Below are positions 22,188 to 64,000 of a stretch of 64,000 nt of DNA, piece by piece (the stretch's first letter is position 1; every line of letters starts with the position of its first letter). Position numbers and translations under genes: made by a program. The stretch comes from Candidatus Magasanikiibacteriota bacterium (GTDB taxonomy: Bacteria; Patescibacteriota; Patescibacteriia; Magasanikbacterales; GWA2-37-8): assembly GCA_016189025.1 (NCBI GenBank), contig JACPGS010000014.1:16339-80338 (forward strand). The letters are read 5' to 3'. The notes under the pieces are model-generated. The model saw nothing but the letters and a program-made list of their open reading frames with translations, searched no databases and was not told where the DNA came from.

Positions 22188-22233
22188 ATTTGTCTACCGA
22201 TTATACTGAGGCCATCTAAAAAATCACTTTTAA

Positions 22234-35139: not shown

Positions 35140-38100
35140 TCACTGGCTCGGGGCGACGATTACATTGCCCTGGAACGTGGTCCAGGCGCCCGAAGTGGGC
35201 GAATTATCCTGGCACTCCTCTCGGTAACAGCCCAGGTTGCGGCCCGCGGAATCGGTGCGGCCGCAATTGCCGTTGCACCAGCCCCAGTTGTCGGTTAACT
35301 GCACCCGGGGGCGATAGATGCAGCAGCCGCCCGGCAACCCGGCGGCCCGGCAGCGGCTGTCGTTCGGCAGCCAGTTAAGGTTGCCGGCGTCCGCCGCACA
35401 CTGGTAAACATGCTCAAACTGGAAAAAGGCGTTGTCGCAGGTAGCGCCTTCCTGGCGGTCAAAAGTCGGCGCCTGGCCGGCCTCCACGCACCAGCGGGCC
35501 GGGCCGCAGGAACCGTTTAGTTGCGTGCAGCTCTGCCCGCCGACCGTGCAGCGCAGGCCCGAGGAGCAGGTGGGCGTCGGTTGATTGGGTAGCGGAGGGC
35601 AGGCCTGGTCCGTGGTACAGACATCGCCTTTCTGGCCGTTGATATCGCAATACTTGGTGGACGGCACGCTGCAGGGCGTACGCGGTCGGTTTGAATCGTT
35701 GTCAAAAAACGGGCAATCGGAATTGTCGCTCGCGGTACACGCAATGCTCCGGTCGTCGCGGCAGCGGCCTTCGGTTTCCCTGATACTGCACTGGTAGTGC
35801 TGCAGCTGGCCCTGACAATCAGCATCCGCTGAACAGGTGCGGCCGTTTACCGCCGGATCGCCCTGGCAGACGCGGGCGCCTTGCCGGCAGATATCCTCAA
35901 TTTTCCCGCGCTGATTGCGGTACTGACCGGCGTAGCGGATAACGCGGCCGTCGCCCCAGTCCACGGCCACGCCGCGCAAGGGCATTTGGTTGGAATCAGC
36001 CGCCCCAAAAAAGCGCAGCACGGCGGTGCGGTTGGCGGCGCCGGAAATTTTGGCGGTGCTGGTAACGCCGTTAACCGTAAACACATCGCGGCTGGTGGGC
36101 CCTTCAAAACAATCGTCCGCGGCATCGCACCGGAACGGCGCCCATAACTGGGGCCGCTGCGGGGCGACGCCCACTGTATTACCATCATGCAGGTCGCCGG
36201 TGGCCGTATAATCGTAGACAAAGTCGGCAAACAGACTGCCCGCGGTCGCAATCCGCTCATCAGTAACTTGGTAGCCGGTATAACCAGAGGCAGTGGAGGC
36301 AGGCGTTAGGTCAAAACGGAAAATGCGTTTGACCGCGGCAAAAATCTGGCCTAGATTATTGCGGCCTTCCGGCGCCAGGTATTCTCCGGCCGCAGTCTTA
36401 ACAGTAACCAGCTTGCCTTGCTGTTCTTCGCTGCGGGTACAGATGCGGGAGCCGGCGGCGTCGGCACAACTGTAGGGCGCGCCAATGGAGGCCTGCGGGT
36501 CGAGAATCCAGTAGCGGCATTCTTCCAGTCCCCCCGAAGGGCAGCGGCAGGTGGCCGGCAGATTAGTGCGCTCCACCAGACCGCTGCAAGGGCGCCCCAC
36601 CTGCCCCGCTTCCGAGGGCAACGAGAAAGGCGTCAGAATTACCGGGCTCGCCAGCCCCTCGGGAGAATTGGCGTCCAGGCTGCCAAACGGGCTAAACGGC
36701 GTATTCACATTATAGTTAAGGTTGGTTTTACCGGCGCTGGAAGTAAATCTTAAAGCCTGAATAGGGAACTGGCGTAATTTATTCCAAAGGCGATTCGTCC
36801 AGGGCGCGGTTTCGGGTGCGGCATAATCCACCTTGGCTTCGGCAATCGCCCGGCACCATTCGCGCAAATGAAAAGTAACTTTATAATCAATCCCGCCGCT
36901 GTCCGGAGAATCATCGCAAAAAGAGAAGTCGTAGCCGAGAAAAGCCCGCGTTTCAAGGTCAAAACGCACCTTAATGGCATGCCAATTGCCGTTGCCGCGA
37001 TTAGCGCCGGGACAGCTGCTGCTCTGCCAGGGGTCGCCGATAATCCGGGTAAAAATATTGCCGCTTAAATCACCGCACCGGCCGCCCGCCAAAGGAAAGC
37101 ATACCTGGCCGTCTTCCTTAACATAGGTGTCGGCGGTATTGCCTTGCACCAGCTGACTGCCGTACATCAGCACCAGCTGGTGGGACTGGCCCAGGAAGCG
37201 CCCAGCCACGGCGTAACCTAACTGCCAATCCCCATCTTCCTTGTTTTTCGGCTTTACTTTATAACTGGCCTGCTGGGTAGCCGGATCATTGGGCCAGATT
37301 TCAAAAATCGTGCCTGGCGCCGGATCTTCCGGGCCCGAACTTACCACCTGGAAAGTGATTTTTTCAATATCGGTCTGGATAATTTTCGCTTCTTCGGTGC
37401 TGCTGTCCGGCGGCAGGGGATTAACGGCAAACTGATTGGTAGAAATAGACAAGTGAGGGCGCGTCACAAAACTATGGCCGCCTTGCGCGTCCGCGCCGCC
37501 GCTGCTGTTGAGGCAATAAAAAGTGCCGCCGCGCTCCGGATTCTGGTAGCCGGCCTCGGCATGCTGGTTGTTGATATCCAGAGCGCCCTGCAGGGTATCC
37601 ACCGGCCACCAGGTAAGGCAGGGGTGAGTTTTAGGATCATTATTCAGCGGGCGGCTTTGGTCGTACTCCAGGCAATACCCGCGCCAGCCGATGCGCTTGT
37701 CTTCGCGGGTTAAGCGCTGGCAGGTGCCGTCCGGCGTGGCGCCGGGCCGCGGCGCGCAGTCCGCGTTAGTAGCGCAAACTTTGCCGGCCTGGGTGCCGCC
37801 TTCGCACAAAGCCGGCGGCACGCCCTTGGGTCCGGGGAGGGTAGCGCCGGCGCGGGGCAAGGGATTGGCGCTGTTAGGAGCGCGATAATTCCAGAATTTA
37901 GTGGTGAGGTCGCCGTACTGAACCCGGGTATAATCGCATTCACAAGCCAAAGCAGTGGGACCAGCAGCAGACGGGCCGGATTCCTGGCAGCGCTTGACGC
38001 CGTTGAACAGGGGCGCGTCAACCAGCGACAGCGTATTGGGGAACGGCGCATCTTCTTCCGGATAAGCGCGGCAGGTCAGGCGTTCCGCTGCTGCGGTATT

Positions 38101-41100
38101 GTCCCTGGCAGGGGCGATACACACGCCATTGGTACAGACGCCCGACCCGTCGGCTCCGCAGGGAGCGCCGTCTGGATTGCAGCTGTAAACTGCCGGGCCA
38201 GCGGTGGTCGGCACCCGTCTCACCAGCCGCCAGTCGGCCGGGGCGCTGGGGGGCGCGATATTCATCTGCCAGAGCTCTTCGGGAGGCGGCAGCCCCAAAA
38301 GCGAATATCCAGAATATTCCTGATTCCGCCAGCCTACCCCGCGTTTAACATAATCGGCGACAGTTAAGGCCGGGGTAGCGCCTTTGTTCTCCACCCAGTT
38401 GCCGCAATTAGTGAGGTCGCCCGGCTCGGTCGCCGGCGCCGCGGTATTGCAACGCCCTACTTCGTCGCATACTTCCCGCCAACGGGAAGTGGTCTGATCC
38501 CACACCCGGTGCGAGGAGCGGCACTGCAGCCACTCGCCGCATTCGCGGTCAGGCGCTACTTTAATGATGATGTTGGCATCGTTCTTGTTGCTGGCTGGCT
38601 CGGGCGGAACTAGCCGGCCGTCGTTGCGGTCGGATTTGCGGTAACTCGCCGCCGTATTCCACAGCTTGGCGGGGTTCGCTGTTTCGTCAAACAGGGCGCA
38701 GCCGTTTTTCAGACTCACTTCGCCGCTGCAGTCGTTTTTGTTGACCTTGTCGTTATTAAGGAAGTACCAGGGCCGGTTATTGTCGTTGCGGTCCACAAAT
38801 TCGCTACAGCCGGCTTCGGCCGCCGGACATTCGCCGACAAACCCGGCGTAAGTATTAACGTCGCCGGCCGACCACAAGCCATAGGAGCCGTCGGCCAAAG
38901 TATAATTGGGGTAACACGCGCGATCTTGGTTACACTTGTTGCCGGCGCCGCAGGCGGCATCGCTCGCGCAAATCTTAGTGGCATCGTTATCGCAGACCTT
39001 AACCCCGCTCCAGTACCAGCCGGCGCGGATGCCCTTATCCGGTACCGCCGGGCGATAAGCGCAAATCCGGTTGCCCTGCACGGCCGGATCTTTGGCATAA
39101 GTAGTGCCGCCCCTGGCGTCCAAGAGCGCGCTGCACCCCACCGCTTCGCTTTGGCAGAGCGCTTCGCGGTAGAGGGCAGGGTCGTTCTTAATCAGCGTGT
39201 CCTCAAACTGCGTGCCCGCTGCCGCCGGCACTAGAGCGCCAGCCGCGGTACAGCCGCGATCCGGCTCGCGGCAGATGGTTTCCTGATTATTTACCAGATA
39301 CCACGGCGTGGTGCTGGGCGTATCCGCGGGCAGATATACCGAGGAGGGGGTTAGTTGCGGACGCACCGCGGCGCCATTAATTTCTCCTTGGGCAGTTAAA
39401 ATGCCGGGCTCTACATCGCGCACGTCTACATAACAGCCCGGCTCCCCGGCCGGCACGGCGCAGGTGACCGGCGTGCGGCCGTCCGGGGCCGCCAGATCGC
39501 GGCCGTTAATGGTCAGCTTAAGAGTGCCGGGGCCGTTGCCTGGCAACCAGACGCGATACACCTGCGGGCCCTGGTCGGCTTCCGTCACCCGCCCGCCGGT
39601 CAGGGTGTTATAAGTATCCAAAACCGCAGTGCAGCCGATGGCCGCCTCGCGGCAGAGGAAGCTAAAATTAGTGAGGTTTTCGCTGCGGCCGTCCGCCGCC
39701 GTGTAGGCGCGACAGCCAAGAGCCTCGCCGGGCAGATTATCTTCCGGGTGAGAATCGCAGGCCGCCGGGATAGTGAGGGAATTTTTTAAGCGATAAAGAT
39801 AATCGCTCACTTCGGTGAGCTGGACATTGTCAATAAAGAACTGGCCGGGCGAAGCGGGATTAAAGAAAAGATACGCGCTGGTGGTGGCGCCGGTAAAAAT
39901 AACCGGGCCGTAGCGATAATACTGCCAGGCGTCGCCTAACCCGCGGCTCTCTAGAGTGGTATCAAAATTGCCGTCCGCATCCACCAGACGCACCGAGAGA
40001 TTCCCCCCGCTGCCTTTGGCCCAAAAGGTGAGGGTATAGCTTTCGCCCAGGCGCAGCGCTTCGCTATCAGTCAGACGGCGAATCAGCACCCCGCCGGCGC
40101 CGGAGACGGTAAGCGACTGTTCGTTGGCATGGGTGGATTCGGACGACAGCGCATAATTGGTGGCGCCGGCCGGCGCGCTCCAGGCCGGCAGATCCGCGGT
40201 GGTAGTAACGCCTTCAAAGGTATCGGTAAAAATCTGGCGCACGCGGTTGCCGCGCGGCCCCTTGTACTCGCGGCAGGATTCGGCCGCGGCGCTGCAGCTG
40301 GCGCTCGCGCCGGCGTTAGTCAAGACGCCGCCGGGCAGCCCGCGGTAATAGCAAAAGCCGTCGCGATATTCGCCGCCGCTGTAACACAATTCGCACCGGC
40401 CGCTCGCTAGCTCCCATTTGCCGCTTTCCGCCGCACACTCGGCAGCGCCAAACTCGCACCGCCCGTTATTCCACCGGCCGTGGCGGAGCGTGCAGGCCGC
40501 TTGGGTAGCCGCCCCGCTGACCAGCGCGGTGTACAGCTCCGGCGCGTCCAGCCGGTAATCGGTGCAGGAATTGGATACGGGAATAGTTTGGGCGAGCAGG
40601 CGATAATAAACCCGGCCTTGGTCATCGTTAAACTGCCGGCAATCTGCGTCCGCCTGTCCTGCTTGGTAGAGAGCCGCCGTGCATTTTTGCTCAAACCCAG
40701 CTAGTTCCTCTAGGGTGCGATAGAAATACTTGGGACCACCGCTGCCATCCGTTGCCAGAGTGTAAACGCGCAACTGGAATCCGGCTTGGGCGGTACCTTC
40801 AAACACCGTAAAATTCTTTTCTTTAGTTTTGGGGGTAGCGGGGTCCGGCAGCTGGCAAGGACGCAGCCTGGTAAAGTATTCCACCTGTTCAGCGCGACCC
40901 TCACTGACATTAGTAAAGGCGCGGCAGCCTTTTTCTTCGGCGCGGCACTCTTTGGCCAGATCCGGAATTAAATACGCCAGCGGCTCCCCGGCCGAATAAT
41001 CGCTTTCGGTTTCGCGATAAGCGTCATACCCCACGCACTGCGCCTCACAGCGGTCGCCGCTCACCACCTTGCCCGGAATCCGCTCGCCGGTTTCTTTGGC

Positions 41101-43305
41101 GGTGTACACCGCACAGCCCACTTCGTCGGGAATACAGGCCGGCGCATACTGCCCGCAGGCAGCCGGGGCGCCCGCGGCCAGGCGGTTCAAATCCGCCGGA
41201 TTTTCCGGCCACTGAATACCCGGGGCGGTGCGGTCAGCATCATAGCACCCCAGGTAATCGGGCGCTTTGCGCAAATTCAGCAAATCTCCGGCCGGGTCAG
41301 CGGCGGCCACAAACGCGGTGCAGCCCGCGGAGCGAGCGCCGCAGGTGGAAGCGGCCGGCAATTTAGCGTTAAAGTACACCGCATCCGAAGCAAAACCCAA
41401 AGCAGCGTCCGGCGTACTAGGCAGCTGCCACTTGCCGCTCGCATCCTGGCGCAGGCTGTAAGCGCGGCAGCCGACTGCCGCTTCGCTGCAGGAGCGGGTA
41501 TCCAGGGTGCGGGAGAGATAAGAAACTTCTTTCCCGCCTGACTGATAAGTCTGGCAGGTGCGATTTTCCGCCCGGCAGGTATCGGCATTAAATTTCCAGG
41601 CATTCTTCTCCCGCGCGCAATAGGCAAAAGTAGCGCAGGTTTTGTTATCCGGGGCATAAGCCACGCAGGTAGAGAGGTCGGCGCATTCGGTGAGGCGGGT
41701 CGGCACATCGCGCCCCAGATGCAGGGCCCCCGGCCCCAGGGCATTGCAGCGCGCCGGCGGCGCCTTGATTACCCAATCCGGATCAATCAGATGGCAATAG
41801 GGGAAGCGCGCCGGGTCGGGGCGCACGCCGGTAATCTCCCCGGCCGGATTGCGGATAAAGTCGCAGTCATTAAAGCCTTTCACTACGTCGCCCAAAATCC
41901 AGGGGCGATCCGGGTTGCTGTTCGCGGCGGCAATCTCAAAGCCCAGGGGCAGTATCCGCGCCTGGCGCAATACTTTAATGTTGCTGTAACAATAAGCATT
42001 CTGGCAGAATTGTTTTAAGTCGGCGTTCTCGGTCACCCGGCTCCCGGGAATCAGTTTGCGGTCAGCGTGCAGCCAGCCGCGCGCCAAGGCCGAAGCAACG
42101 GTAACGGTTTCACCGCCCGCCGCGTTCTGTAGCGCCAGCAAAAGGTCGTTGTCGGCGCGGCAGTTATAGGTGCCGCTCCCCTCGCAGTTGCCGAGCTCGG
42201 CAATTAAATCATAGCTTTCTTTGGCGCCAAGCTCCACTGCCAGAAATGAGCTGAATAATTCCTGGGCCGCGCGCCGGCCTCCCACGGCCCCGCCGGCTTC
42301 AAATTGCTGGGCAGCAGCCCCGGCGCCGAGACAATTTTGGCTGCCGTCGCGGCAGCCGCTGCCAAAGGGCAGAATACCCTTTTCCTGGTAATTTTTTACC
42401 ATCGTAGAAACCAGGGTATTCAGGAAAATTCCCAACACATTGGGAATGACCCTGATTTCGCCGGAAGTAAGGAGCGCCCGCACCTGCTCTTCGTCGCTTT
42501 CGCCTTGTTTGCTGGGGATGATGTTTTCAAATCCTTTTTGAATTAGCGCCGCCGGATTGGTAATCTGGTTGGAGATCAACGTGGTCTTAGCTAAAAAGCC
42601 TTTGCCTTCCTCGCGCTGCTTATCGGCCCCGGCCACTTTATTGCGAATCAGCTGATCAATTTTTTGGGTAGTTTTTAAATGAATGCCAAAATCGGTCTGG
42701 GATAATTCCAGATTGGCGCTGAATCTTTCGGCCAGCGATTCTTCGCTGTATTTGCTCCGCCAGGCATCGCCGCTAAACCACTCGCTGGTAAACTGCGAAA
42801 AACTGCACTTGCCTTTGAGCGGCGATCCCGGCTCGGCGCCGGGGACATCTTCAAAACCGGTGCGCAAACCAATGCGCAGCGCCAGATTAACCTTAACATC
42901 AGGAATCTGGCAGATATTTTCCACGCCAAACGCACTCCCTAGCTGTTCAATGCCGGCCCCCAGGGCGTCATCACCCACCTGCTTCAGATAATCGCCAAAT
43001 CCTTTAGTGAAAGCGAGCGGGCTTTGGCCCTTGCCCCCCGCGGCCAGCCACACGGCCGAGTCATAAGCGAATTTGCGCAGGGCATAAGCCACCACCCGGC
43101 TGGTGGCGGTGAGCACCGCGGCCTTCAAGCCGGCATAAATCTGATTGATGATCTTATTGGTGGTATCGGGAATGCTGCCGGTGATAAAAGCCGGCAAGCC
43201 TTGCGCCTGCGCCGGCGCCGGAATAAGCAGGGTGCCGGCGAGCGAAGTGGCAGCCAGCAATACCGCCAAAAGCCCGAGACTGAATTTTTGCCAGGGTTTA
43301 GGCAT
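35140..43305 (-). CDS. Giant (2721 aa) secreted cysteine-rich surface protein with a lectin/CBM-like beta-sandwich segment.
   Basis: The signal peptide MPKPWQKFSLGLLAVLLAATSLAGTLLIPAPAQAQG and many Cys clusters throughout are present. The segment ...LTFWAKGSGGNLSVRLVDADGNFD...FFNPASPGQFFIDNVQLTEV resembles carbohydrate-binding beta-sandwich modules. The gene is about 65% GC. Confidence 0.65.
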   Translation of the reverse strand: MPKPWQKFSLGLLAVLLAATSLAGTLLIPAPAQAQGLPAFITGSIPDTTNKIINQIYAGLKAAVLTATSRVVAYALRKFAYDSAVWLAAGGKGQSPLAFTKGFGDYLKQVGDDALGAGIEQLGSAFGVENICQIPDVKVNLALRIGLRTGFEDVPGAEPGSPLKGKCSFSQFTSEWFSGDAWRSKYSEESLAERFSANLELSQTDFGIHLKTTQKIDQLIRNKVAGADKQREEGKGFLAKTTLISNQITNPAALIQKGFENIIPSKQGESDEEQVRALLTSGEIRVIPNVLGIFLNTLVSTMVKNYQEKGILPFGSGCRDGSQNCLGAGAAAQQFEAGGAVGGRRAAQELFSSFLAVELGAKESYDLIAELGNCEGSGTYNCRADNDLLLALQNAAGGETVTVASALARGWLHADRKLIPGSRVTENADLKQFCQNAYCYSNIKVLRQARILPLGFEIAAANSNPDRPWILGDVVKGFNDCDFIRNPAGEITGVRPDPARFPYCHLIDPDWVIKAPPARCNALGPGALHLGRDVPTRLTECADLSTCVAYAPDNKTCATFAYCAREKNAWKFNADTCRAENRTCQTYQSGGKEVSYLSRTLDTRSCSEAAVGCRAYSLRQDASGKWQLPSTPDAALGFASDAVYFNAKLPAASTCGARSAGCTAFVAAADPAGDLLNLRKAPDYLGCYDADRTAPGIQWPENPADLNRLAAGAPAACGQYAPACIPDEVGCAVYTAKETGERIPGKVVSGDRCEAQCVGYDAYRETESDYSAGEPLAYLIPDLAKECRAEEKGCRAFTNVSEGRAEQVEYFTRLRPCQLPDPATPKTKEKNFTVFEGTAQAGFQLRVYTLATDGSGGPKYFYRTLEELAGFEQKCTAALYQAGQADADCRQFNDDQGRVYYRLLAQTIPVSNSCTDYRLDAPELYTALVSGAATQAACTLRHGRWNNGRCEFGAAECAAESGKWELASGRCELCYSGGEYRDGFCYYRGLPGGVLTNAGASASCSAAAESCREYKGPRGNRVRQIFTDTFEGVTTTADLPAWSAPAGATNYALSSESTHANEQSLTVSGAGGVLIRRLTDSEALRLGESYTLTFWAKGSGGNLSVRLVDADGNFDTTLESRGLGDAWQYYRYGPVIFTGATTSAYLFFNPASPGQFFIDNVQLTEVSDYLYRLKNSLTIPAACDSHPEDNLPGEALGCRAYTAADGRSENLTNFSFLCREAAIGCTAVLDTYNTLTGGRVTEADQGPQVYRVWLPGNGPGTLKLTINGRDLAAPDGRTPVTCAVPAGEPGCYVDVRDVEPGILTAQGEINGAAVRPQLTPSSVYLPADTPSTTPWYLVNNQETICREPDRGCTAAGALVPAAAGTQFEDTLIKNDPALYREALCQSEAVGCSALLDARGGTTYAKDPAVQGNRICAYRPAVPDKGIRAGWYWSGVKVCDNDATKICASDAACGAGNKCNQDRACYPNYTLADGSYGLWSAGDVNTYAGFVGECPAAEAGCSEFVDRNDNNRPWYFLNNDKVNKNDCSGEVSLKNGCALFDETANPAKLWNTAASYRKSDRNDGRLVPPEPASNKNDANIIIKVAPDRECGEWLQCRSSHRVWDQTTSRWREVCDEVGRCNTAAPATEPGDLTNCGNWVENKGATPALTVADYVKRGVGWRNQEYSGYSLLGLPPPEELWQMNIAPPSAPADWRLVRRVPTTAGPAVYSCNPDGAPCGADGSGVCTNGVCIAPARDNTAAAERLTCRAYPEEDAPFPNTLSLVDAPLFNGVKRCQESGPSAAGPTALACECDYTRVQYGDLTTKFWNYRAPNSANPLPRAGATLPGPKGVPPALCEGGTQAGKVCATNADCAPRPGATPDGTCQRLTREDKRIGWRGYCLEYDQSRPLNNDPKTHPCLTWWPVDTLQGALDINNQHAEAGYQNPERGGTFYCLNSSGGADAQGGHSFVTRPHLSISTNQFAVNPLPPDSSTEEAKIIQTDIEKITFQVVSSGPEDPAPGTIFEIWPNDPATQQASYKVKPKNKEDGDWQLGYAVAGRFLGQSHQLVLMYGSQLVQGNTADTYVKEDGQVCFPLAGGRCGDLSGNIFTRIIGDPWQSSSCPGANRGNGNWHAIKVRFDLETRAFLGYDFSFCDDSPDSGGIDYKVTFHLREWCRAIAEAKVDYAAPETAPWTNRLWNKLRQFPIQALRFTSSAGKTNLNYNVNTPFSPFGSLDANSPEGLASPVILTPFSLPSEAGQVGRPCSGLVERTNLPATCRCPSGGLEECRYWILDPQASIGAPYSCADAAGSRICTRSEEQQGKLVTVKTAAGEYLAPEGRNNLGQIFAAVKRIFRFDLTPASTASGYTGYQVTDERIATAGSLFADFVYDYTATGDLHDGNTVGVAPQRPQLWAPFRCDAADDCFEGPTSRDVFTVNGVTSTAKISGAANRTAVLRFFGAADSNQMPLRGVAVDWGDGRVIRYAGQYRNQRGKIEDICRQGARVCQGDPAVNGRTCSADADCQGQLQHYQCSIRETEGRCRDDRSIACTASDNSDCPFFDNDSNRPRTPCSVPSTKYCDINGQKGDVCTTDQACPPLPNQPTPTCSSGLRCTVGGQSCTQLNGSCGPARWCVEAGQAPTFDRQEGATCDNAFFQFEHVYQCAADAGNLNWLPNDSRCRAAGLPGGCCIYRPRVQLTDNWGWCNGNCGRTDSAGRNLGCYREECQDNSPTSGAWTTFQGNVIVAPSQ

Positions 43306-54826: not shown

Positions 54827-56101
54827 CTATTCTGCCGACGGAGTTGGCGTCTGGTCGTTAGTTAACTCTCCCGCCTCCTCTGCCGCCGGGACCGCTTCTG
54901 CCGCCTGATCCGTTTCTGCCGCGGGTGCTGCGGCGCCGGCCGCGGCCTCGGGCAGAGGTTCGCCTCCCCCTTCCTGGCGCACGTTTAACCGCCAGCCGGT
55001 CAGCTCGGAAGCTAACCGTACATTCTGGCCGCTACGGCCGATTGCCAGGGAATATTGGTCCGGCGCCACGGTAACCACCGCAGTCTGGGCGCCGGAATCC
55101 AGCTCCACGCGGAAGACCTTGGCTGGCGATAAGGCATGGCTGATGAAATCTGCCGGATTATCGCTGTATTGGATAATGTCAATTTTTTCGCCGCCTAACT
55201 GATCAATGATGGTGTTAATCCGGCTGCCCCGCTGCCCGATGCAGGAACCGATCGGATCAATGGCCGAGTCGGTGGCCGCCACTGCCACTTTGCTGCGCCA
55301 GCCGGCCTCGCGGGCAATGCCTTTCACCTCCACTTTGCCGCCCCCGATTTCCGGAATCTCCTGCCGGAAAATTTCCCGGACCATTCCCGCGTGCCGGCGC
55401 GACAGAATTATCTCGGGGCCGCGCACCGTCATGGTGACCGACACTACATAAAACTTCAGCCGCGCTCCGGGGCGATAGCGTTCGCTTTCCACCTGCTCTT
55501 CCCCCGGCATAATGCCGGTGATTTTACCCAAATCCACCAAGACCTTGCGCGCTTCGGCTCGTTGCACCGTACCCACAATCAGCTGCCCCTCGTGATTCTT
55601 AAAATCATCAAATACTAAACCGCGCTCCGCCTCGCGGATTTTCTGGATGATCACCTGCTTGGCGGTCTGCGCCGCCATGCGGCCGAATTCGTGGGGGATC
55701 TTTAATTCCATTTCCAACACCTCGCCGATTTGCGCGTCACTTTTAATCTCTCGCGCCGGCGTTAACATCATTTCCAACTTCGGATTAAACCGCGGCAAAT
55801 CAGCGGTCTCCTCCTCGGTCAGCTCGCGCCCTTCCTCGCGCGCCTTCTCGCGCCGCGTCGCCAGCTCTTCTTGGGCTTTTTCCAACGCTTCTTCGGGAAT
55901 ATCCGCTACCACGGTCTTAATGTCCCAGGCCTGCATGTCGCCGGTTTCCGGATCAAATTTTACCTTGATGTTCTGCTGCTTATTGCCAAAATCCTTGCGG
56001 TATGCCGCGGCCAAGGCTGATTCCACGGTTTCCATCACTGTTTCGTAGGCAATGCCTTTTTCATCGCACAGGGCCTGGATTGCTTTAGTGATTTCTGACA
56101 T
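54827..56101 (-). CDS. nusA: Transcription termination/antitermination factor NusA.
   Basis: MSEITKAIQALCDEKGI... is followed by S1 and tandem KH regions (...GSRINTIIDQLGGEKIDII...), with a C-terminal acidic/Ala-rich tail. Confidence 0.9.
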   Translation of the reverse strand: MSEITKAIQALCDEKGIAYETVMETVESALAAAYRKDFGNKQQNIKVKFDPETGDMQAWDIKTVVADIPEEALEKAQEELATRREKAREEGRELTEEETADLPRFNPKLEMMLTPAREIKSDAQIGEVLEMELKIPHEFGRMAAQTAKQVIIQKIREAERGLVFDDFKNHEGQLIVGTVQRAEARKVLVDLGKITGIMPGEEQVESERYRPGARLKFYVVSVTMTVRGPEIILSRRHAGMVREIFRQEIPEIGGGKVEVKGIAREAGWRSKVAVAATDSAIDPIGSCIGQRGSRINTIIDQLGGEKIDIIQYSDNPADFISHALSPAKVFRVELDSGAQTAVVTVAPDQYSLAIGRSGQNVRLASELTGWRLNVRQEGGGEPLPEAAAGAAAPAAETDQAAEAVPAAEEAGELTNDQTPTPSAE

Positions 56102-57841: not shown

Positions 57842-59596
57842 TCATTTTCTCGTCGCCGGATGGCCATAACGATAAACTACCACAATCCCCGCTCCATAAG
57901 CAAGGACGGTAGCCCACAGGGGAATGCTTAACTCGGCCGCGGCGCCGCGCCAAGCACCGAACCACGCAATCACACCCAGCACATATTTAAGGCCGAGCGC
58001 AGTGGTTGCCGCGGCTAACTGCCCCGCAGGAAAAAACAACCAACTGATGCTGGCGGCTAACGCCCCTCCCAGCATCAGCCAGGGAATAGTCCAGAGCACT
58101 AAAATATTAACCAGCGGCGCTACCAAAGAAAAGCGCCCAAACTGATACAGGATGAGCGGAGTGGTGGCAATGATCGCGGATAGGGTAGAGAGGAGCGACT
58201 CACGCAAAAACGCCAGCCGGTCACCCCGAGCGAGGCCGTTTAACAGACGGCCGAGCGAAGCAATCCCCCATCTTACCGCTGACGTAATTGATCCGGAACG
58301 CCGGGGGACCGCTACCTCATCCCCCGCCGCTCTGCGCTCAAGGATCTTCGCGATGACGCTCTGGAGAATGGGCGACACATAGACTAACCCCATGGTGGAA
58401 AGAAAAGATAGCTGGAACCCGGCATCCCACAGCACGACATAAGGATTATTCAGCGTCATGAGAGCCGCGGCCAAAGCCAGGGCATTGCCCATCCGCGACA
58501 AGCGCCCCAGATGCTGGCCGATGAGCACCAGACTACCCATAATTGCCGCCCGAACTACCGAGGCCGAAGCGCCGGTAAACACCACAAAAAGCGCTAACAT
58601 CAAGAGCACCAGCCAAAACGCCTGGCGCCGCCACAGGCCGATACTGATGAAGGCGCTCATCAGTATGGTTGCAATAATCGTAACATTGTAACCGGAAACC
58701 GCAATAATATGGGTAAGGCCGGTGCGATTAAAGTTCTCCATTACTTCTGGGGGAAGTCCGCTCCGGCTGCCGTAAAGAAGTCCCGCCACCAGACTACTCT
58801 CCGGCTCGGGCCATAATTGGTCAATCTGACTGCGGACTTCAGACTTCAGCCAGAGGATTTTTTTCATTGGCAGTGCTCCTAGGCGCCAATTGTCATCCCC
58901 GTGTAGGCGGGGATCCAGATTCTGGATTCCCACTTCCGTGGGAATGACAGGGTGTACCTTCGGCCTCTCGCACCCTGCCCACACCCCGCCGAGCGCCAGA
59001 TATTTGTCGTAACGAAACGAACTGTCGGCCCGGCGCTCCGGTTTCTGCAACTGGCATTCAAGGCTCAACCAATCGCCATAATTATACTGGGGATACAAAC
59101 GAGTCTTGATAATTATTTTACCGCCCACTGCTTTCATGCCAACCGAAGAAGTAATAGACTCCCTCCCTGTCATTCCCGCGAAAGCGGGAATCCAGTCGGG
59201 GATGACAATCATAGACACGCTAACCACATACCTCGCCTCGCTAATCCGAACATCCGGCTCCTCGCTTATCCGGCCGACTAAAGTAACGCGTCTGCCGTTA
59301 TATGAACACAAGTTGTGTTCATCAGTACAGTCGGGAATCGTAATCAATAATCGCCACACGCCCAGCAGAACAAAAAACGTGCTCAAGCCGGCAAAACGAA
59401 TGGCCGGCCGGCGCCAAACCATTATTACCGCGACCAATAGAAAAAACAGCGCCCCGTAGACTGTTAAAGTCGCGCTCGGCTTACTCGGAAAATCTCCGGC
59501 CGAGGCAGCCGTGGCGCCGATAATAAAACAAAAACAAAACGCCAAAAACGTTTTGCTTTTTGAATTGAGGAACTGAAGAAATTTATCCGACCACAT
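57842..59596 (-). CDS. comEC: ComEC/Rec2 competence channel protein (membrane domains), carrying two in-frame mini-element insertions.
   Basis: The N-terminal DUF4131-like region and polytopic 'Competence' domain are present (...GLTHIIAVSGYNVTIIATILMSAF...). The peptide segments SMIVIPDWIPAFAGMTGRE and HPVIPTEVGIQNLDPRLHGDDN are encoded by palindromic elements. Confidence 0.8.
   Translation of the reverse strand: MWSDKFLQFLNSKSKTFLAFCFCFIIGATAASAGDFPSKPSATLTVYGALFFLLVAVIMVWRRPAIRFAGLSTFFVLLGVWRLLITIPDCTDEHNLCSYNGRRVTLVGRISEEPDVRISEARYVVSVSMIVIPDWIPAFAGMTGRESITSSVGMKAVGGKIIIKTRLYPQYNYGDWLSLECQLQKPERRADSSFRYDKYLALGGVWAGCERPKVHPVIPTEVGIQNLDPRLHGDDNWRLGALPMKKILWLKSEVRSQIDQLWPEPESSLVAGLLYGSRSGLPPEVMENFNRTGLTHIIAVSGYNVTIIATILMSAFISIGLWRRQAFWLVLLMLALFVVFTGASASVVRAAIMGSLVLIGQHLGRLSRMGNALALAAALMTLNNPYVVLWDAGFQLSFLSTMGLVYVSPILQSVIAKILERRAAGDEVAVPRRSGSITSAVRWGIASLGRLLNGLARGDRLAFLRESLLSTLSAIIATTPLILYQFGRFSLVAPLVNILVLWTIPWLMLGGALAASISWLFFPAGQLAAATTALGLKYVLGVIAWFGAWRGAAAELSIPLWATVLAYGAGIVVVYRYGHPATRK
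58891..58950. mobile_element. Palindromic mini-element (60 bp, subtype II) inserted in-frame within comEC.
   Basis: tgtcatcccc-gtgtaggc-ggggat-ccagattctgg-attccc-acttccgt-gggaatgaca has terminal inverted repeats, two arm hairpins and a central ccag..ctgg palindrome. It is translated in comEC as VIPTEVGIQNLDPRLHGDD. Confidence 0.65.
59167..59208. mobile_element. Palindromic mini-element half-copy (42 bp) inserted in-frame within comEC.
   Basis: ctgtcattccc-gcgaaagc-gggaat-ccagtc-ggggatgacaat is translated as IVIPDWIPAFAGMTG. Confidence 0.65.
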
Positions 59597-59643
59597 ACGA
59601 GGAGCGCCCCAGTCACTCCCCGTTTGACCAGCGGTCTGATGTT

Positions 59644-60276
59644 TTAAATTTCTCTGCTTTTACCGTCCTCCAGCATCATCCATTCTATGCCCGCTTGTTT
59701 AAATTCCCGCTCGGCGTGCGTATAGTAAGGATTGGCTGGCTTCAAAAAAGCGTCATGGGTTGGGAATATTACCTGGGGTTTTACCTGCAAACCGTAATCA
59801 AGCATATCAGCAAGTTTCATCCAGGGCGCCGCAATCGGACAGGCCAAAATGTCTACCGCGATGTTTGGCACATTCAAAGCATCGCCCGGATGAAACAAAC
59901 GACCGGCAATCAAGTATCCGGTATTATCTACCACCGGCAAAGTAGAGTAAATAAAGGCATGTTTTTCGCCGACCCCTTCAATTTTTACTCCCGCTACTTC
60001 GCTCACCTGTTTATTCCCCAAATTCTGATAAGCCACCCCCGCTTCTGCCAGCTTCTTTCCCACTCCCGCATTAGTATAAATGATACAGTTTGGATTAGAT
60101 AGCAATAATTTCTTGATATTCTCAATACCAAGATGATCTTGATGTTCATGAGTAACCAAAATAGCGTCCAAATTAGTAAGTTCGGGAATGGTTGACCAAA
60201 CGCCCGGGTCAATCAGAATCCGTGCCCTGCCTTCTTCAACCAACAGGCAGGAGTGGCCGAATTTGGTGATGCGCAT
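59644..60276 (-). CDS. MBL-fold metallo-hydrolase.
   Basis: ...ILVTHEHQDHLG... (HxHxDH) is present. The ATG at 60276 (MRITKFGHSCLLVEEG...) is preferred over the track start at 60324. Confidence 0.7.
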   Translation of the reverse strand: MRITKFGHSCLLVEEGRARILIDPGVWSTIPELTNLDAILVTHEHQDHLGIENIKKLLLSNPNCIIYTNAGVGKKLAEAGVAYQNLGNKQVSEVAGVKIEGVGEKHAFIYSTLPVVDNTGYLIAGRLFHPGDALNVPNIAVDILACPIAAPWMKLADMLDYGLQVKPQVIFPTHDAFLKPANPYYTHAEREFKQAGIEWMMLEDGKSREI

Positions 60277-60281
60277 ACTTG

Positions 60282-60893
60282 CTAGATTAGTGCCAGTTTG
60301 GTTTGATATAGTATCTTTCGACAAGTTGAACGATCTCCCTGATGACAGATCGCTAAGGTATTTGCCTTAAACCGAACCGGGAGTTTGTCTGTCTTCGCAA
60401 ATGAAGTTCGCAAAGTAAGGTGCGGATCGAACTTTTTAAAGCTTGCCGCCTGCAAAAAATTTTGTAACCAACGCGGGGTAATGGGATCGAAATATTCACC
60501 GCGTTTCTTAAAATACACTGCGGGAGTAGCTCGCTGGTGAGTGAAGGGACGAAGCTGCGCAATAATTTTTTCATGTAATTTCTGTAAAGCGGCGGTTTTC
60601 TTTGCTTTGAACTGAAACATTCTGCCACTGCCAACCATCACTGAGCGCAAATCTGTTAAAGTGATAAGCACAGACTTAAATTGTTCAGCGACTTCACCTA
60701 ATACTTGCCGCGCTTTGGGCATATCCTTCTCTGCCAATACACACATAAATAACGACAGATGTGGTAAATTATCCTTTACGTTCAACGAAAAAGGACGCTT
60801 TTGACGACCAGCAAACTCTTGACTAATTTGAATGCACTTATCACGTATTTCTTTTGGCGGCAAAAGCACTACGTCAATAGCAAAATACTTCAT
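60282..60893 (-). CDS. 2H-phosphoesterase superfamily protein (LigT / 2'-5' RNA ligase-like).
   Basis: Two H-x-[ST]-x motifs are present at the expected spacing: ...NLPHLSLFM... and ...DPHLTLRTSF... Confidence 0.6.
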   Translation of the reverse strand: MKYFAIDVVLLPPKEIRDKCIQISQEFAGRQKRPFSLNVKDNLPHLSLFMCVLAEKDMPKARQVLGEVAEQFKSVLITLTDLRSVMVGSGRMFQFKAKKTAALQKLHEKIIAQLRPFTHQRATPAVYFKKRGEYFDPITPRWLQNFLQAASFKKFDPHLTLRTSFAKTDKLPVRFKANTLAICHQGDRSTCRKILYQTKLALI

Positions 60894-60905
60894 AATCCGT
60901 TCGAA

Positions 60906-63900
60906 TCAAACTACAATGCTCACCAACCTTCCCTTTACATAAATTATTTTCTTCGGCGCTTTTCCTTCCAGCCATTTTTGCACCCGATCGTCCGATAAGG
61001 CATTCCTCTTTATTATCTCTTCATCCAAATTCGTGCCGACCTGCTGTCGAGCGCGGACTTTACCATTTACTTGTATAACTATTGTCATCCTTTCCTCATA
61101 CAGATTCTTCTCATCTACGATCGGCCACTTTTCGGATGCTAAACTTCCATTATTTTCAAAAAATGGTTCGCTGTTCCATAATTCATCAGCAATATGCGGT
61201 GCAAATGGTGAAAGAAGCTTTAAGAATATTTTCCAAACTCCTCTTGAGATAACAGAATTAGATGATATTTCGTTAATAAATTCCATCATTTTAGCAATTG
61301 CTGTATTGAATTTCATTTCATCAATATCTGTGGTTATTTTTCGAATTAGCTTATGCACTAATTTTAATTGGTCATCAAAAATCCAACCGTCCTCTCCTTC
61401 TCTGTCGAATTTATTATTATTCTGTATTGCCCACACTTTTTCTAAAAACCTCTTCACTCCTTTCACCCCATTGGTATCCCACGCCACCGGCTGGTCAAAC
61501 GGCCCCATAAACATAATGTACATCCGCAACGCGTCCGCGCCGTACTGCTCTACCATTTCATCGGGGTTGACGACGTTGCCGCGGCTCTTGCTCATTTTTT
61601 CTCCGTCTGGACCCAGGATCAGACCGTGGCTGGTGCGTTTTTTGTACGGCTCGCGCGTGGGCACCAGGCCAAGGTCGTAGAGAAACTGATTCCAGAAGCG
61701 GGAATACAATAAGTGCAATACAGTATGCTCCATACCGCCGTTGTACCAATCCACGCCACCACCAGTACTGTCATCCTGACCCCGAGCAGGAGCGAGGGGG
61801 AAGGATCTCTGTCCGTTTGGCGATTGGGACAGAGATTCCTCACGTTCGTTCGGAATGACAGTATTGCGACCCATCCAGTACTCTAACTTCTTCATTGAGG
61901 CAAACTCTTTATTATTATGCGGATCGCAGTAGCGCAAAAAGTACCAGCTGGACCCGGCCCAGTTCGGCATCGTATCGGTTTCGCGCCGCGCCGGGCCGCC
62001 GCAGCGCGGGCAGGTGGTTTTTACCCATTCCGTCATTGCCGCCAGAGGCGACTCGCCGGTATCGGTGGGCTGATATTTGGCTACTTTGGGGAGCTCTAAA
62101 GGTAGTTTATCTTCGGGTAGCGGGATCCAACCGGAATTAAAAGATTGAACGTCGGGAAATTCATCAAGAATTTCCGGCAATTCCAGAATTCCAGCGCGTT
62201 CGTTAAAGTGGCCCTTATTCTTAAAAATTTTCACCTTTGCCCTCAGTGGGGAGTAATTATCTGTAACTGACAGCGGAACGAACGGGTCGTCCTCTGATAA
62301 ATATATAATGGTTTCCTTCGCCAGGTTTCTAACTTTATCCAAGCTCTGGTTAGCCGCATTAAATTTTTTAATACACTCAATACTCTCCTCGTCGCATCCG
62401 GCATCCCGCAAATTTTTCCAATTAATCGCTTCTTGCCTGTCGCCCGTCGGGCTGATTAGAATTAACCTTTCAATTTGGGCGCTGTGCTTTAGCACAAACT
62501 GACAGGCCGCTGGCCCGCCTAAGCTGTGCCCAACCACAATCAAACTTTCGTCTTTCCCGATAGGCAAATCTGCCAAGGTTTTTAACCACTTATCGAGCGA
62601 CGGATGAACATTGTTTGGTAAATTCGGAGCCAAAACTTCATAACCTCTCTTTTTCATTTCTTTACGAAACCAGGGAATCCAGTTCTCTTCGCTGTATCCG
62701 TAAATTCCATGAATGTATAAAATTTTTGGTTTTCTCTGCGCACAATTCTCGCAATACACCAGCGGTATCGGCTCGCCCCAATAACGTTGGCGACTAAACA
62801 CCCAATCCCGCAATTTATAATTCACCTGCCGCTTGCCTATGCCCTGCTCCTCCAGCCAGGCAATCATTTTGGCTTTGGCTTCTGGCGTTGAGAGGCCGGT
62901 GAGAAAATCGGAATTAATGCTGATACCATCGGGAGTGTACGCCTGCCCCCCATGGTTAAACCAGTTCCAAATAAACGGGCCGTCAACTACATTAATAAAA
63001 TTACCGACCTCCTCTGGTTCAATCCAGACTGGAGTGTGTTTTTCCATTTCTGCCGCCGACACTGTATCCTGTTCATCAGAATTTAATTCAAAATGCAATA
63101 CTCTGATTTCGGCATAACGATTTTCATCTTTATGCGCAGCGTGATACTCGGTATGCACTTCTAAACCAAGATCTTTGACAAAACGCAAATTACGATAGCC
63201 GGTTTCTTCCTTAATCTCGCGCTCGGCCGATACCACGGGGTCTTCTCCCGCCTCTGTCCCGCCAATAATAAAAGTGCGGGGTTCGCGTCCTTCCCACATC
63301 GCTCCTTTCCATTGCAGCATTAAAATCTTGCCGTCGCTCTTACGACGCACAATGGCATGTACGGTTTGGCGACGCTTAGTCTTTTTTCCCGGCTGGGGAG
63401 GGTGAACCGGCTCGATAAAATGAGCGGCAACGACCTGCTTGATTGGCAGATGGTATTTACTAGCAAATTCCCAATCCCGCTGGTCGTGCGCCGGCACCGC
63501 CATAATCGCGCCGGTGCCGTAGCTCGCGAGCACATAGTCCGCGATCCACACCGGGATGGCTTCGTTATTTACCGGATTGATAGCTTTGATGCCTTTCAGC
63601 TCCACGCCGGTTTTCTCGCGGCCTTCGGCGGTGCGTTCTTGTTCGGTTTTTTTATTAACCTGTTCAAGATAGGCGCCTACTTCGGCGGCATTCAAAATTC
63701 TGGATTTCAACCGCTTCACCAACTCGTGTTCGGGCGCGAGCACCATGTACGTCGCGCCGAAGAGGGTATCGGGGCGGGTGGTAAAGACTTCGACTATCAT
63801 CCCCGACTGGATTCCCGCTGGCGCGGGAATGACAGAGAAACGGACAACCGCGCCCTCGCTCCGGCCAATCCAATTCTCCTGTTGCACCCGCGCTTGGGGA

Positions 63901-64000
63901 ATGTAGTCAACTTCTTTCAAACCGGCGAGGAGCTTGTCGGCATACTTTGTAATCGCCAGCATCCATTGTTCTTTATTGCGCTTTTCCACCGGCGCATAGC
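60906..64000 (-). CDS. leuS: Leucyl-tRNA synthetase, 5'-partial (N-terminus with HIGH motif beyond window end). It carries two embedded foreign domains (Nudix; alpha/beta-hydrolase) and two mini-element-derived peptide inserts.
   Basis: It aligns with bacterial LeuRS: ...QENWIGRSEG..VVRF...TTRPDT (CP1 editing start)...GTGAIMAVPAHDQRDWEFASKY...VNYKLRDWVFSRQRYWGEPIP...GMEHTVLHLLYSRFW...KMSKSRGN (KMSKS)...C-terminal anticodon-binding and Leu-specific domains ...VIQVNGKVRA... Confidence 0.9.
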   Translation of the reverse strand, partial: YAPVEKRNKEQWMLAITKYADKLLAGLKEVDYIPQARVQQENWIGRSEGAVVRFSVIPAPAGIQSGMIVEVFTTRPDTLFGATYMVLAPEHELVKRLKSRILNAAEVGAYLEQVNKKTEQERTAEGREKTGVELKGIKAINPVNNEAIPVWIADYVLASYGTGAIMAVPAHDQRDWEFASKYHLPIKQVVAAHFIEPVHPPQPGKKTKRRQTVHAIVRRKSDGKILMLQWKGAMWEGREPRTFIIGGTEAGEDPVVSAEREIKEETGYRNLRFVKDLGLEVHTEYHAAHKDENRYAEIRVLHFELNSDEQDTVSAAEMEKHTPVWIEPEEVGNFINVVDGPFIWNWFNHGGQAYTPDGISINSDFLTGLSTPEAKAKMIAWLEEQGIGKRQVNYKLRDWVFSRQRYWGEPIPLVYCENCAQRKPKILYIHGIYGYSEENWIPWFRKEMKKRGYEVLAPNLPNNVHPSLDKWLKTLADLPIGKDESLIVVGHSLGGPAACQFVLKHSAQIERLILISPTGDRQEAINWKNLRDAGCDEESIECIKKFNAANQSLDKVRNLAKETIIYLSEDDPFVPLSVTDNYSPLRAKVKIFKNKGHFNERAGILELPEILDEFPDVQSFNSGWIPLPEDKLPLELPKVAKYQPTDTGESPLAAMTEWVKTTCPRCGGPARRETDTMPNWAGSSWYFLRYCDPHNNKEFASMKKLEYWMGRNTVIPNEREESLSQSPNGQRSFPLAPARGQDDSTGGGVDWYNGGMEHTVLHLLYSRFWNQFLYDLGLVPTREPYKKRTSHGLILGPDGEKMSKSRGNVVNPDEMVEQYGADALRMYIMFMGPFDQPVAWDTNGVKGVKRFLEKVWAIQNNNKFDREGEDGWIFDDQLKLVHKLIRKITTDIDEMKFNTAIAKMMEFINEISSNSVISRGVWKIFLKLLSPFAPHIADELWNSEPFFENNGSLASEKWPIVDEKNLYEERMTIVIQVNGKVRARQQVGTNLDEEIIKRNALSDDRVQKWLEGKAPKKIIYVKGRLVSIVV
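61778..61861. mobile_element. Palindromic mini-element (84 bp, subtype I) inserted in-frame in leuS.
   Basis: ctgtcatcc...ggatctctgtcc-gtttggcgattg-ggacagagattcc...tcggaatgacag has an internal 10-bp perfect inverted repeat. It is translated as ...TVIPNEREESLSQSPNGQRSFPLAPARGQDDS..., an insert between conserved LeuRS YWMGRN and GGVDWYNGGMEH with no counterpart in E. coli LeuRS. Confidence 0.65.
62154..62729 (-). other. Embedded alpha/beta-hydrolase (serine hydrolase, RBBP9/YdeN-like) domain inserted in the LeuRS catalytic core.
   Basis: About 190 aa lie between the conserved LeuRS blocks RQRYWGEPIPLV and PTDTGESP...TEWVKTT. E. coli LeuRS has about 15 aa here. The nucleophile elbow VVGHSLGG (G-H-S-x-G), ...KILYIHGIYGYSE... 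and later Asp/His candidates (SEDDPF, KGHFNE) are present. The segment is about 40% GC. Confidence 0.7.
62946..63395 (-). other. Embedded Nudix hydrolase domain inserted near the C-terminal end of the LeuRS CP1 editing domain.
   Basis: The Nudix box GGTEAGEDPVVSAEREIKEETGY (G-x5-E-x7-R-E-U-x-E-E-x-G-U) lies within about 150 extra residues between conserved LeuRS blocks FASKYHLPIK and GIGKRQVNYKLRDW. Confidence 0.75.
63798..63836. mobile_element. Palindromic mini-element half-copy (39 bp, subtype II) inserted in-frame in leuS.
   Basis: tcatcccc-gactgg-attccc-gctggcgc-gggaatgacag is translated as VIPAPAGIQSGM between the conserved VVRF and IVEVFTTRPDT of LeuRS. Confidence 0.65.

Follow-up and report, generated by a model that had tools for sequence, protein, structure and literature searches.

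A leucyl-tRNA synthetase gene of a Magasanikiibacteriota bacterium with nested Nudix and serine hydrolase domains that appear to be exchanged among relatives

The leucyl-tRNA synthetase (LeuRS) gene leuS at the end of a 64,000-nt stretch of contig JACPGS010000014.1 (assembly GCA_016189025.1, Candidatus Magasanikiibacteriota bacterium), in the following called the window, encodes two further predicted enzymes within its own reading frame. One is a Nudix hydrolase nested in the CP1 editing domain and the other is an alpha/beta serine hydrolase of the YdeN/RBBP9 type, located directly after the first CxxC pair of the zinc knuckle. Comparison with related synthetases indicates that such domains behave as exchangeable cassettes, which are found, replaced or missing at a small number of loops of an otherwise intact enzyme. 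In our overall reading, which we hold with a probability of roughly 55%, the architecture is real, the cassettes are exchanged between leuS alleles and the inserts would serve as tethered accessory hydrolases beside an intact CP1 domain.

The leuS frame lies on the minus strand and can be followed from 63998 down to a stop codon at 60906-60908. Its 1030 codons run past the end of the window, and by comparison with full-length homologues we estimate that about 160-190 N-terminal residues including the HIGH signature are located beyond it. For the gene next to leuS, matches were limited to Logan contigs no longer than 2.7 kb, and an exact 33-mer search of the JGI metagenomes gave no match. Even without this N-terminus, the fragment reaches 645.9 bits with the NCBIfam equivalog leuS_bact (TIGR00396, cut-off 548.4), and it aligns with the LeuRS of Thermus thermophilus (1H3N) in five collinear blocks with an E-value of 8.5e-144. 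Pfam recognizes the LeuRS editing domain PF13603 (aa 41-192, 199 bits), tRNA-synt_1 (aa 767-831) and Anticodon_1 (aa 878-996, 80 bits). As class I signature, KMSKS is present at aa 801-805, and the homologue P0001, in which the HIGH region can be read, has HVGH at this place. The four cysteines of the zinc knuckle (C416, C419, C663 and C666) are nearly invariant in the homologue alignment. Absent from the LeuRS of the window is the leucine-specific domain, which precedes KMSKS in the enzymes of T. thermophilus and E. coli. Judged by these matches, the gene is a genuine Patescibacteria (Magasanikbacteria-like) leuS of the bacterial type, and within the window the predicted protein retains the CP1 editing site, the zinc knuckle, KMSKS, the anticodon-binding domain and the C-terminal domain. 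The parts of the gene are as follows:

60906..64000, minus strand: partial coding sequence of leuS, based on the open frame, the TIGR00396 score and the 1H3N alignment
63423..63878, minus strand: canonical part of the CP1 editing domain (aa 41-192, PF13603), with TTRPDT at 63765-63782 and AHDQRD at 63474-63491
62943..63428, minus strand: nested Nudix hydrolase domain (aa 191-352), replacing the T. thermophilus 365-374 loop inside the editing domain
63195..63263, minus strand: Nudix box GGTEAGEDPVVSAEREIKEETGY (aa 246-268), an exact fit to GX5EX7REUXEEXGU
62742..62753, minus strand: first zinc-knuckle CxxC, CENC (aa 416-419), aligning with T. thermophilus C439-x-x-C442-G443
62133..62741, minus strand: nested YdeN/RBBP9-type alpha/beta serine hydrolase (aa 420-622, 203 aa), directly after the first CxxC
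Catalytic parts of this hydrolase, minus strand: oxyanion HG at aa 430-431; GHSLGG with Ser492 at aa 490-495 (62514-62531); Asp571 within 62280-62297; His597 within 62199-62216
62001..62012, minus strand: second zinc-knuckle CxxC, CPRC (aa 663-666), aligning with T. thermophilus TTCPKCGG
61758..61871, minus strand: third insert GRNTVIPNEREESLSQSPNGQRSFPLAPARGQDDSTGG (38 aa, aa 710-747), between T. thermophilus residues 530 and 532
61584..61598, minus strand: KMSKS catalytic loop (aa 801-805), based on the motif and the 1H3N alignment
61011..61367, minus strand: anticodon-binding domain (aa 878-996, Pfam Anticodon_1, 80 bits), the part of the gene with the lowest GC content

The Nudix insert matches Pfam NUDIX (PF00293) at aa 209-331 with 40.9 bits, the cut-off being 21.1. 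Residues R, E, E, E and G of its box are conserved to at least 95% in 93 homologous inserts and are invariant in a 30-sequence alignment. An AlphaFold2 model of the insert reached a mean predicted local distance difference test score (pLDDT) of 96.2 and a predicted template modelling score (pTM) of 0.90, with the alpha/beta/alpha fold of Nudix enzymes. Among its characterized structural neighbours are the diadenosine hexaphosphate (Ap6A) hydrolase Ndx1 of T. thermophilus (comparison score 15.1), NudI (15.0) and the diadenosine polyphosphatase Rv2985 of Mycobacterium tuberculosis (14.6), closely followed by MutT-like proteins, ADP-ribose pyrophosphatases and RppH. The serine hydrolase insert is covered by Pfam Ser_hydrolase (PF06821) at aa 427-612 with 57.2 bits (cut-off 22), and it matches residues 6-183 of the 192 residues of Bacillus subtilis YdeN (1uxo) with an E-value of 5.8e-16 and RBBP9 with 3e-9. 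Here, the serine, the histidine and the HG motif are invariant in the hydrolase alignment, and the aspartate is conserved to at least 90%.

An earlier note on this DNA, made from the letters of the sequence, had already described a continuous leuS frame of more than 1027 codons with a complete Nudix domain carrying a textbook box in CP1, a complete RBBP9/YdeN-like hydrolase with a GHSLGG elbow and retained CP1 editing residues. All of this is borne out by the results above and by the CP1 alignment given below, with the Pfam search of the 1030-aa fragment supporting both assignments above cut-off. The places it named for the inserts also hold and only the borders have to be redrawn. According to the 1H3N alignment, the Nudix insert comprises about aa 193-351, or some 160 residues, and the 40 residues preceding VNYKLRDW are canonical CP1 and not part of the insert; the hydrolase, put at about 190 aa in the note, comprises 203 (aa 420-622).

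Both inserts are additions to an intact editing synthetase, since the CP1 residues T74, D77, T78, H171, D172, R174 and D175, located in TTRPDT (aa 73-78) and AHDQRD (aa 170-175), are invariant across 52 aligned homologues. A replacement of a decayed CP1 domain was considered and rejected for the same reason. An intein was rejected as well: no Hint or intein domain was matched by Pfam, the first residues of the inserts are AAHF and AQRK, and those coming after them are AYT and GWI. When the 1030-aa fragment was modelled in full (mean pLDDT 84.6, pTM 0.60), both large inserts reached pLDDT values of 90-97. Taken together, motifs and models show the two inserts to be autonomous, well-folded and, as far as can be predicted, catalytically intact enzymes nested in surface loops. 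In the domain and homology searches, the inserts matched Nudix and alpha/beta-hydrolase families alone and showed no homology to the known editing folds of aminoacyl-tRNA synthetases (CP1, INS/YbaK, AlaX and Dtd).

An assembly artefact, in which a chimeric join or a frameshift had placed unrelated hydrolase genes inside leuS, was also considered. Assemblers do break in this gene. Three independent Logan assemblies of its 3' end (L001-L003, from SRR12113422, SRR12113419 and SRR12113385) match 59169-61823 at 100% and all of them end at 61823, which is the centre of a palindromic repeat inside leuS. However, this break is located downstream of both large inserts and coincides with a multi-copy repeat, relatives have the same repeat at the same leuS site, and both inserts are in frame at exactly those loops that are occupied in over 100 homologues, which were assembled independently and come from different sources. 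On this comparison there is practically no chance left for such an artefact, and mis-assembly is ruled out as an explanation of the architecture. Continuity across the repeat itself rests on the assembly of the window, on the preserved frame and on the repeat of the relatives at this site; the large inserts are independent of it, since they are located upstream of 61823.

The repeat forms the third insert, a copy in frame with leuS of a palindromic element that is dispersed and has the core ACTGTCATTCCGA...GAGGAATCTCT. The insert contains the inverted repeats I2 and I3, and with a pLDDT of about 30 it is modelled as a disordered loop. Related copies are found at 17113-17151 and at about 22233-22274 of the window as well as in the leuS of relatives at the same site, and other copies are intergenic, in the window and in relatives. 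In one homologue (P0009), the repeat-derived peptide (EESLSQ..GQRS..DD) is present at three different LeuRS loops. At 63804-63836 of the window, at insertion site A as defined below, we also observed the peptide 'SVIPAPAGIQS', in place of which relatives such as P0066 and P0070 have longer inserts of the type 'VIPAKAGIQ...RGND'. These look like translations of another repeat family, of which the peptide of the window may be a remnant.

A whole-protein search gave 8000 LeuRS sequences, of which the best 120 were examined. Each of these 120, drawn from NCBI, JGI, ENA and Logan, has one large insert or more, with both present in about half of them; the sample favours insert-bearing sequences because these score best. 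The inserts are lineage-wide among these relatives, as far as the alignments reach. Named carriers are Magasanikbacteria, Uhrbacteria, Paceibacter, Nomurabacteria and 'Patescibacteria group'. A scan of the GTDB species representatives added 77 loci from Magasanikbacteria, Uhrbacteria, Paceibacterota, Nomurabacteria and Taylorbacteria, along with insert-free outgroups, and the best relative of the window LeuRS in this set shows 60% identity in the best aligned segment. Many of the scanned loci (among them L004, L006 and L007) are titled 'uncultured Gammaproteobacteria bacterium' though their LeuRS groups with Patescibacteria, and these labels appear unreliable. All sequences were aligned to a reference without inserts (802 aa), which defined six insertion sites, the contents being given for representative inserts with a Pfam match:

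Site A, just before EVFTTRPDT: Ham1, NUDIX, or Ser_hydrolase together with a DUF559 endonuclease
Site B, in the CP1 loop: NUDIX, HAD, methyltransferase or Ser_hydrolase
Site C, after the first CxxC: Ser_hydrolase family, in 76
Site D, after the second CxxC: HAD
Site E, before VDWYNGG: insertion site
Site F, before the anticodon-binding domain: insertion site

The Nudix family occupies site B in 91 cases and site A in two, whereas the hydrolase family is found at site A in four cases and at site B in two, in addition to site C. HAD inserts are shared by sites B and D. Inserts of 130-190 aa without a Pfam match were seen at site E (P0072, P0086, P0087, P0111, L033 and L050), at site B (P0046 and L035) and at site C (P0093), those of P0046 and L035 having a GG...DxD pattern that resembles a nucleotidyltransferase. 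The cysteinyl-tRNA synthetase of the window (3206-4597) has a normal length of 463 aa and no nested domain, so that nested domains are not a general property of the synthetases of this genome.

The history of the inserts does not follow that of the genes which carry them. Between core identity and insert identity, the Spearman coefficient is -0.09 for the Nudix domain (99 inserts) and +0.14 for the hydrolase (84 inserts), and in 60 of 90 pairs with cores at least 75% identical, the Nudix inserts are less than 35% identical. The Nudix domain of the window is most similar to that of P0014 (69%, with cores at 63%) and its hydrolase to that of P0004 (57%, with cores at 56%), while the cores nearest to the window (71-74%) bear inserts that are just 23-26% identical to those of the window. 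On a neighbour-joining tree of the cores the insert states are patchy. Nearly half of the pairs with cores at least 80% identical (54 of 123, 44%) differ in the sites that are occupied. An example is P0024 and P0044, with cores 96% identical, one with a Nudix domain and the other without. P0019 and P0056, close sisters on the core tree, carry Nudix and HAD, respectively, at the same site. For one pair (L043 and L076) the synonymous divergence (dS) of the insert is 0.52 against 1.28 for the core, dS values being mostly near saturation throughout. As far as the pattern is concerned, it is shown that insert history is decoupled from the host leuS, with cassettes that appear to have been repeatedly gained, swapped and lost. 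Most likely, homologous recombination between leuS alleles would insert, swap and remove them at five or six permissive loops.

The composition of the gene was compared with a background of 0.62 +/- 0.09 for the GC content at third codon positions (GC3) of the genes of the window. In leuS, GC3 amounts to 0.6-0.8 in the core, 0.33 in the second half of the Nudix domain, 0.35-0.47 at the ends of the hydrolase and 0.20-0.35 in the anticodon-binding domain; the gene is a mosaic in this respect. Total GC content is 43.6% in the hydrolase insert, 52.5% and 54.9% in its flanks and 48.3% in the Nudix insert, so that the direction of the difference stated in the earlier note (about 40% against about 58%) was right and its size too large. 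The notion of a low GC content peculiar to the inserts was rejected, as the anticodon-binding domain (34.9% GC, GC3 0.31) and the two genes downstream of leuS are lower still. These three form a contiguous block of low GC3 (0.20-0.46) at 59644-61400, which suggests a recombined or laterally acquired segment ending inside leuS.

A patchy distribution, an insert phylogeny decoupled from the core, insertion sites in an essential gene and a composition differing from the core would also be expected for selfish or neutral passengers, which use permissive loops of an essential gene and spread by recombination or homing without any benefit for LeuRS. In some relatives (P0094) a DUF559/Vsr-like endonuclease domain is located beside the hydrolase, and the dispersed palindromic repeat is likewise in frame in leuS. 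Against this stand the missing Hint or intein domain and junction residues unsuited to splicing (Ala at the start of both inserts, Ala and Gly after them), the lack of an endonuclease in most inserts and the presence of just three weak matches in viral contigs. Moreover, the catalytic motifs are strictly conserved. In relatives with DNA close enough for comparison, the ratio of nonsynonymous to synonymous substitutions (dN/dS), subject to the same near-saturation of dS, is 0.09-0.21 for the inserts and 0.05-0.12 for the core. Conserved motifs and low dN/dS together show selection on what would be an enzymatic function, and we regard mere passengers as quite unlikely.

The Nudix subfamily is also found outside of LeuRS. 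An exhaustive phmmer search with the Nudix insert of the window against 1.84 billion representative sequences gave 298 proteins with E <= 1e-3, of which 159 reached E <= 1e-10; as delimited by this search the subfamily is narrow. The 150 matches listed include 148 newly retrieved sequences, 105 of which resemble LeuRS and about 30 of which are free-standing proteins of 143-210 aa, P0131, for example, retaining the N-terminal NPPxxGKK leader. A prolyl-tRNA synthetase (ProRS; P0173, L092 2762-4693) carries the domain nested between its anticodon-binding and C-terminal domains. Its relatives are ProRS of the DPANN archaea Nanoarchaeota and Woesearchaeota, where a small clade has the insert, which is present in five clusters and missing in about 115 close relatives.

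Several free-standing members are located near synthetase genes. One of them is found 0.7 kb upstream of the Nudix-bearing proS (L092), another one 2 nt upstream of a leuS that itself bears a nested Nudix domain, and a third (L089) 12 nt downstream of argS and 0.9 kb upstream of a gene similar to isoleucyl-tRNA synthetase (IleRS). A fourth belongs to a cluster of the order metG-like ... TatD-Nudix ... HD-domain ... Nudix-leuS. Of the remaining members, one adjoins fpg/MutM and three have no gene for an aminoacyl-tRNA synthetase (aaRS) nearby. This means that four of the eight free-standing members examined are within 3 kb of an aaRS gene, compared with about 15% expected by chance according to a rough, reasoned estimate. 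On these neighbourhoods and nested copies, the subfamily is shown to be recurrently linked with aaRS genes. The locus of the third member (L089, 3279-10316) comprises argS, Nudix, an IleRS-like gene of 1167 aa with a nested His_Phos_1 domain, a further Nudix gene and a metallo-beta-lactamase (MBL) gene, and its IleRS-like gene provides a further case of a phosphohydrolase nested in a synthetase. A tblastn search with all inserts against the 77 leuS loci and the window revealed no free-standing copy beside leuS except one DUF559. A scan of viral contigs with the Nudix alignment gave just the three weak matches already mentioned and no hint of a phage origin.

With regard to function, we favour a reading of the inserts as tethered accessory hydrolases, which would work beside CP1 and not instead of it. 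The most likely substrate would be a by-product or contaminant of the adenine-nucleotide type for the Nudix domain, for example a dinucleoside polyphosphate or a non-canonical nucleoside triphosphate (NTP), and an aminoacyl ester or amide for the serine hydrolase. Both together could provide local house-cleaning or quality control coupled to the synthetase. The Ham1, HAD and histidine phosphatase cassettes are also nucleotide phosphohydrolases and therefore fit a theme of nucleotide house-cleaning. To our knowledge, RBBP9 is the sole PF06821 member with a documented defined activity. The human enzyme forms acyl-enzymes with single hydrophobic amino acids (Leu/Ile, Phe, Tyr and Trp), for which a free alpha-amine is needed (PMC8866121). 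Because of this chemistry in a distant relative, an aminoacyl-ester hydrolase activity of the insert is chemically plausible by analogy.

A more specific proposal was made in the earlier note, namely an auxiliary module for pre- and post-transfer proofreading, or turnover of diadenosine tetraphosphate (Ap4A), built into the synthetase. Spelled out as a dedicated cis module, this would mean that the Nudix domain acts on mis-activated aminoacyl-adenylate (pre-transfer) or Ap4A and that the hydrolase deacylates mischarged tRNA-Leu (post-transfer). The ties of the Nudix subfamily to LeuRS, ProRS and aaRS neighbourhoods are in its favour, as are the place of diadenosine polyphosphate (ApnA) hydrolases among the best characterized structural neighbours and the reaction of RBBP9 with free-amine Leu, Ile, Phe, Tyr and Trp, which is the chemistry needed for the deacylation of aminoacyl esters (PMC8866121). 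However, CP1 is fully intact and leaves no editing gap to fill, the inserts come and go between LeuRS with cores 90-96% identical, and relatives carry HAD, Ham1 or methyltransferase in the same loops. A hydrolase family that occupies three different loops also speaks against cis editing at a precisely docked site, and the inserts have no homology to known editing folds in Pfam. In addition, Nudix enzymes cleave diphosphate linkages, and aminoacyl-AMP such as leucyl-AMP, an acyl-phosphate, has none. The ideas of auxiliary proofreading and of Ap4A turnover are plausible in view of the families concerned; as a dedicated module, the proposal seems unlikely to us.

Another explanation is defence against inhibitors or toxins that target synthetases or tRNAs, for instance aminoacyl-adenylate mimics or toxins that N-acetylate aminoacyl-tRNA; the inserts would hydrolyse or modify such a molecule where it acts. 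A rapid turnover and shuffling of varied domains that modify small molecules (hydrolases and a methyltransferase), all at shared sites, is typical of conflict systems, and NCBIfam contains a model of IleRS with an N-acetyltransferase domain (NF040702). However, no toxin or immunity genes were seen adjoining leuS, and the free-standing Nudix relative next to fpg is in a DNA-repair context. We consider defence very unlikely.

Several observations also weigh against tethered house-cleaning hydrolases, the reading we favour. The inserts are dispensable among close relatives, so that their role is non-essential to LeuRS. Recombination is deduced from discordance and composition and not from mapped breakpoints. 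Sequence matches of the Nudix domain to solved Nudix enzymes are weak (E >= 0.01), its nearest structure is 2azw, a protein without characterized function, and the fold searches single out no substrate class. The neighbourhood count of four in eight is a small sample, and the member beside fpg/MutM points to an ordinary MutT-like nucleotide sanitation, apparently with no link to translation. Open reading frames (ORFs) with a generic Nudix box show no enrichment near leuS, with four in 950 kb of flanks. Finally, the pTM of the whole-fragment model is just 0.60.

Some observations concern the surroundings of leuS. A gene of the 2',5' RNA ligase/2H-phosphoesterase family (60282-60893) is located 13 nt after leuS and overlaps with a gene of the MBL fold (59644-60324); the order aaRS, Nudix and MBL is also present in L089. 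Two adjacent giant ORFs at 29739-35105 (1788 aa) and 35140-43305 (2721 aa) gave no Pfam match, and type IV secretion-like ATPases are encoded near them (12904-15483 and 22388-24244). The N-terminal domain of NusA (54827-56101) comprises 158 residues against a Pfam profile of 119 positions, so that a further housekeeping protein may contain an insertion of about 40 aa.

Synthetases with extra domains are well known. As enzymes they are among the most highly conserved, and the domains added to them are usually terminal and fixed in large clades. In the literature searched, we found no description of LeuRS with nested Nudix or alpha/beta-hydrolase domains, of their cassette-like turnover or of domain insertions in synthetases of the candidate phyla radiation (CPR). 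The statement that this architecture had not been described is thus upheld for the literature searched, but the architecture is abundant in public sequence databases, and the automatic name given by JGI to some members is 'leucyl-tRNA synthetase/predicted alpha/beta hydrolase family esterase'. In the present case, the editing domain and the zinc knuckle of an essential synthetase enclose complete hydrolases that are apparently active and turn over between near-identical hosts, with one insert family recurring with other synthetases, archaea included.

As a tentative extension, which is possible but in our view doubtful, CPR bacteria and DPANN archaea, both ultra-small symbiotic prokaryotes, might share a pool of gene-sized catalytic cassettes moving laterally into permissive loops of aaRS (LeuRS, ProRS and IleRS-like enzymes), so that synthetases would be exchangeable platforms for nucleotide and aminoacyl quality control or for defence. 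The pool may include the dedicated Nudix subfamily, YdeN-type serine hydrolases, HAD, Ham1, histidine phosphatase and methyltransferase domains as well as unmatched folds. If so, essential enzymes of translation would show a mode of modular evolution that has not been described before. If the inserts act on ApnA, damaged ATP analogues or aminoacyl esters, they would represent a natural experiment in coupling house-cleaning or proofreading to tRNA charging in minimal genomes. The system also offers a concrete handle on what the bacterial YdeN family and a new Nudix subfamily do, and the LeuRS loops identified as tolerating insertions of 150-400 aa are useful for protein engineering.

The closest known system is the canonical bacterial LeuRS (T. 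thermophilus 1H3N/2BYT, E. coli 4AQ7), with which the LeuRS of the window shares the order of CP1 with its T-rich motif and catalytic Asp, two CxxC pairs, KMSKS, the anticodon-binding domain and the C-terminal domain. It differs by a Nudix domain of about 160 aa in place of the loop of T. thermophilus residues 365-374, the hydrolase of 203 aa between G443 and V444, 38 aa of repeat-derived sequence between residues 530 and 532, and the missing leucine-specific domain (T. thermophilus ~577-634). The in-frame repeat recalls the in-frame palindromic elements of Rickettsia.

For the inserts themselves, the Nudix pyrophosphohydrolases of (di)nucleoside polyphosphates and NTPs (Ndx1, the Aquifex aeolicus Ap4A hydrolase 3i7u, Rv2985, NudI and MutT) have the fold and the Nudix box in common with the insert at an identity of merely 15-20%. 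Unlike these enzymes, the subfamily of the insert has its own N-terminal NPPxxGKK leader and an HKDENR motif and is nested in synthetases. YdeN (1uxo), human RBBP9 (2qs9 and 7oex) and PF06821 in general share with the second insert the HG oxyanion motif, the GxSxG elbow and the Ser-Asp-His triad over a full-length match, whereas the insert is nested inside another enzyme and its identity to the free-standing proteins is low.

Among systems that might be comparable in function, the trans-editing factors YbaK/ProX, AlaX and Dtd are also auxiliary hydrolases alongside a synthetase. The inserts have different folds without homology to them and are covalently nested, and an action on aminoacyl-tRNA would be an analogy. 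Inteins and homing-endonuclease insertions likewise occur in essential genes, with sporadic spread, a phylogeny decoupled from the host and differing composition. The inserts described here, in contrast, have no Hint or splicing motifs, would stay in the mature protein and are themselves conserved enzymes. The IleRS with an N-acetyltransferase domain (NCBIfam NF040702, 'ileS_w_GNAT'), known to us from the model listing alone, likewise combines a complete class I synthetase with an unrelated small-molecule-modifying domain; the LeuRS of the window differs from it in having a Nudix and an alpha/beta hydrolase, two nested at once, at variable positions and with apparently frequent exchange among relatives.

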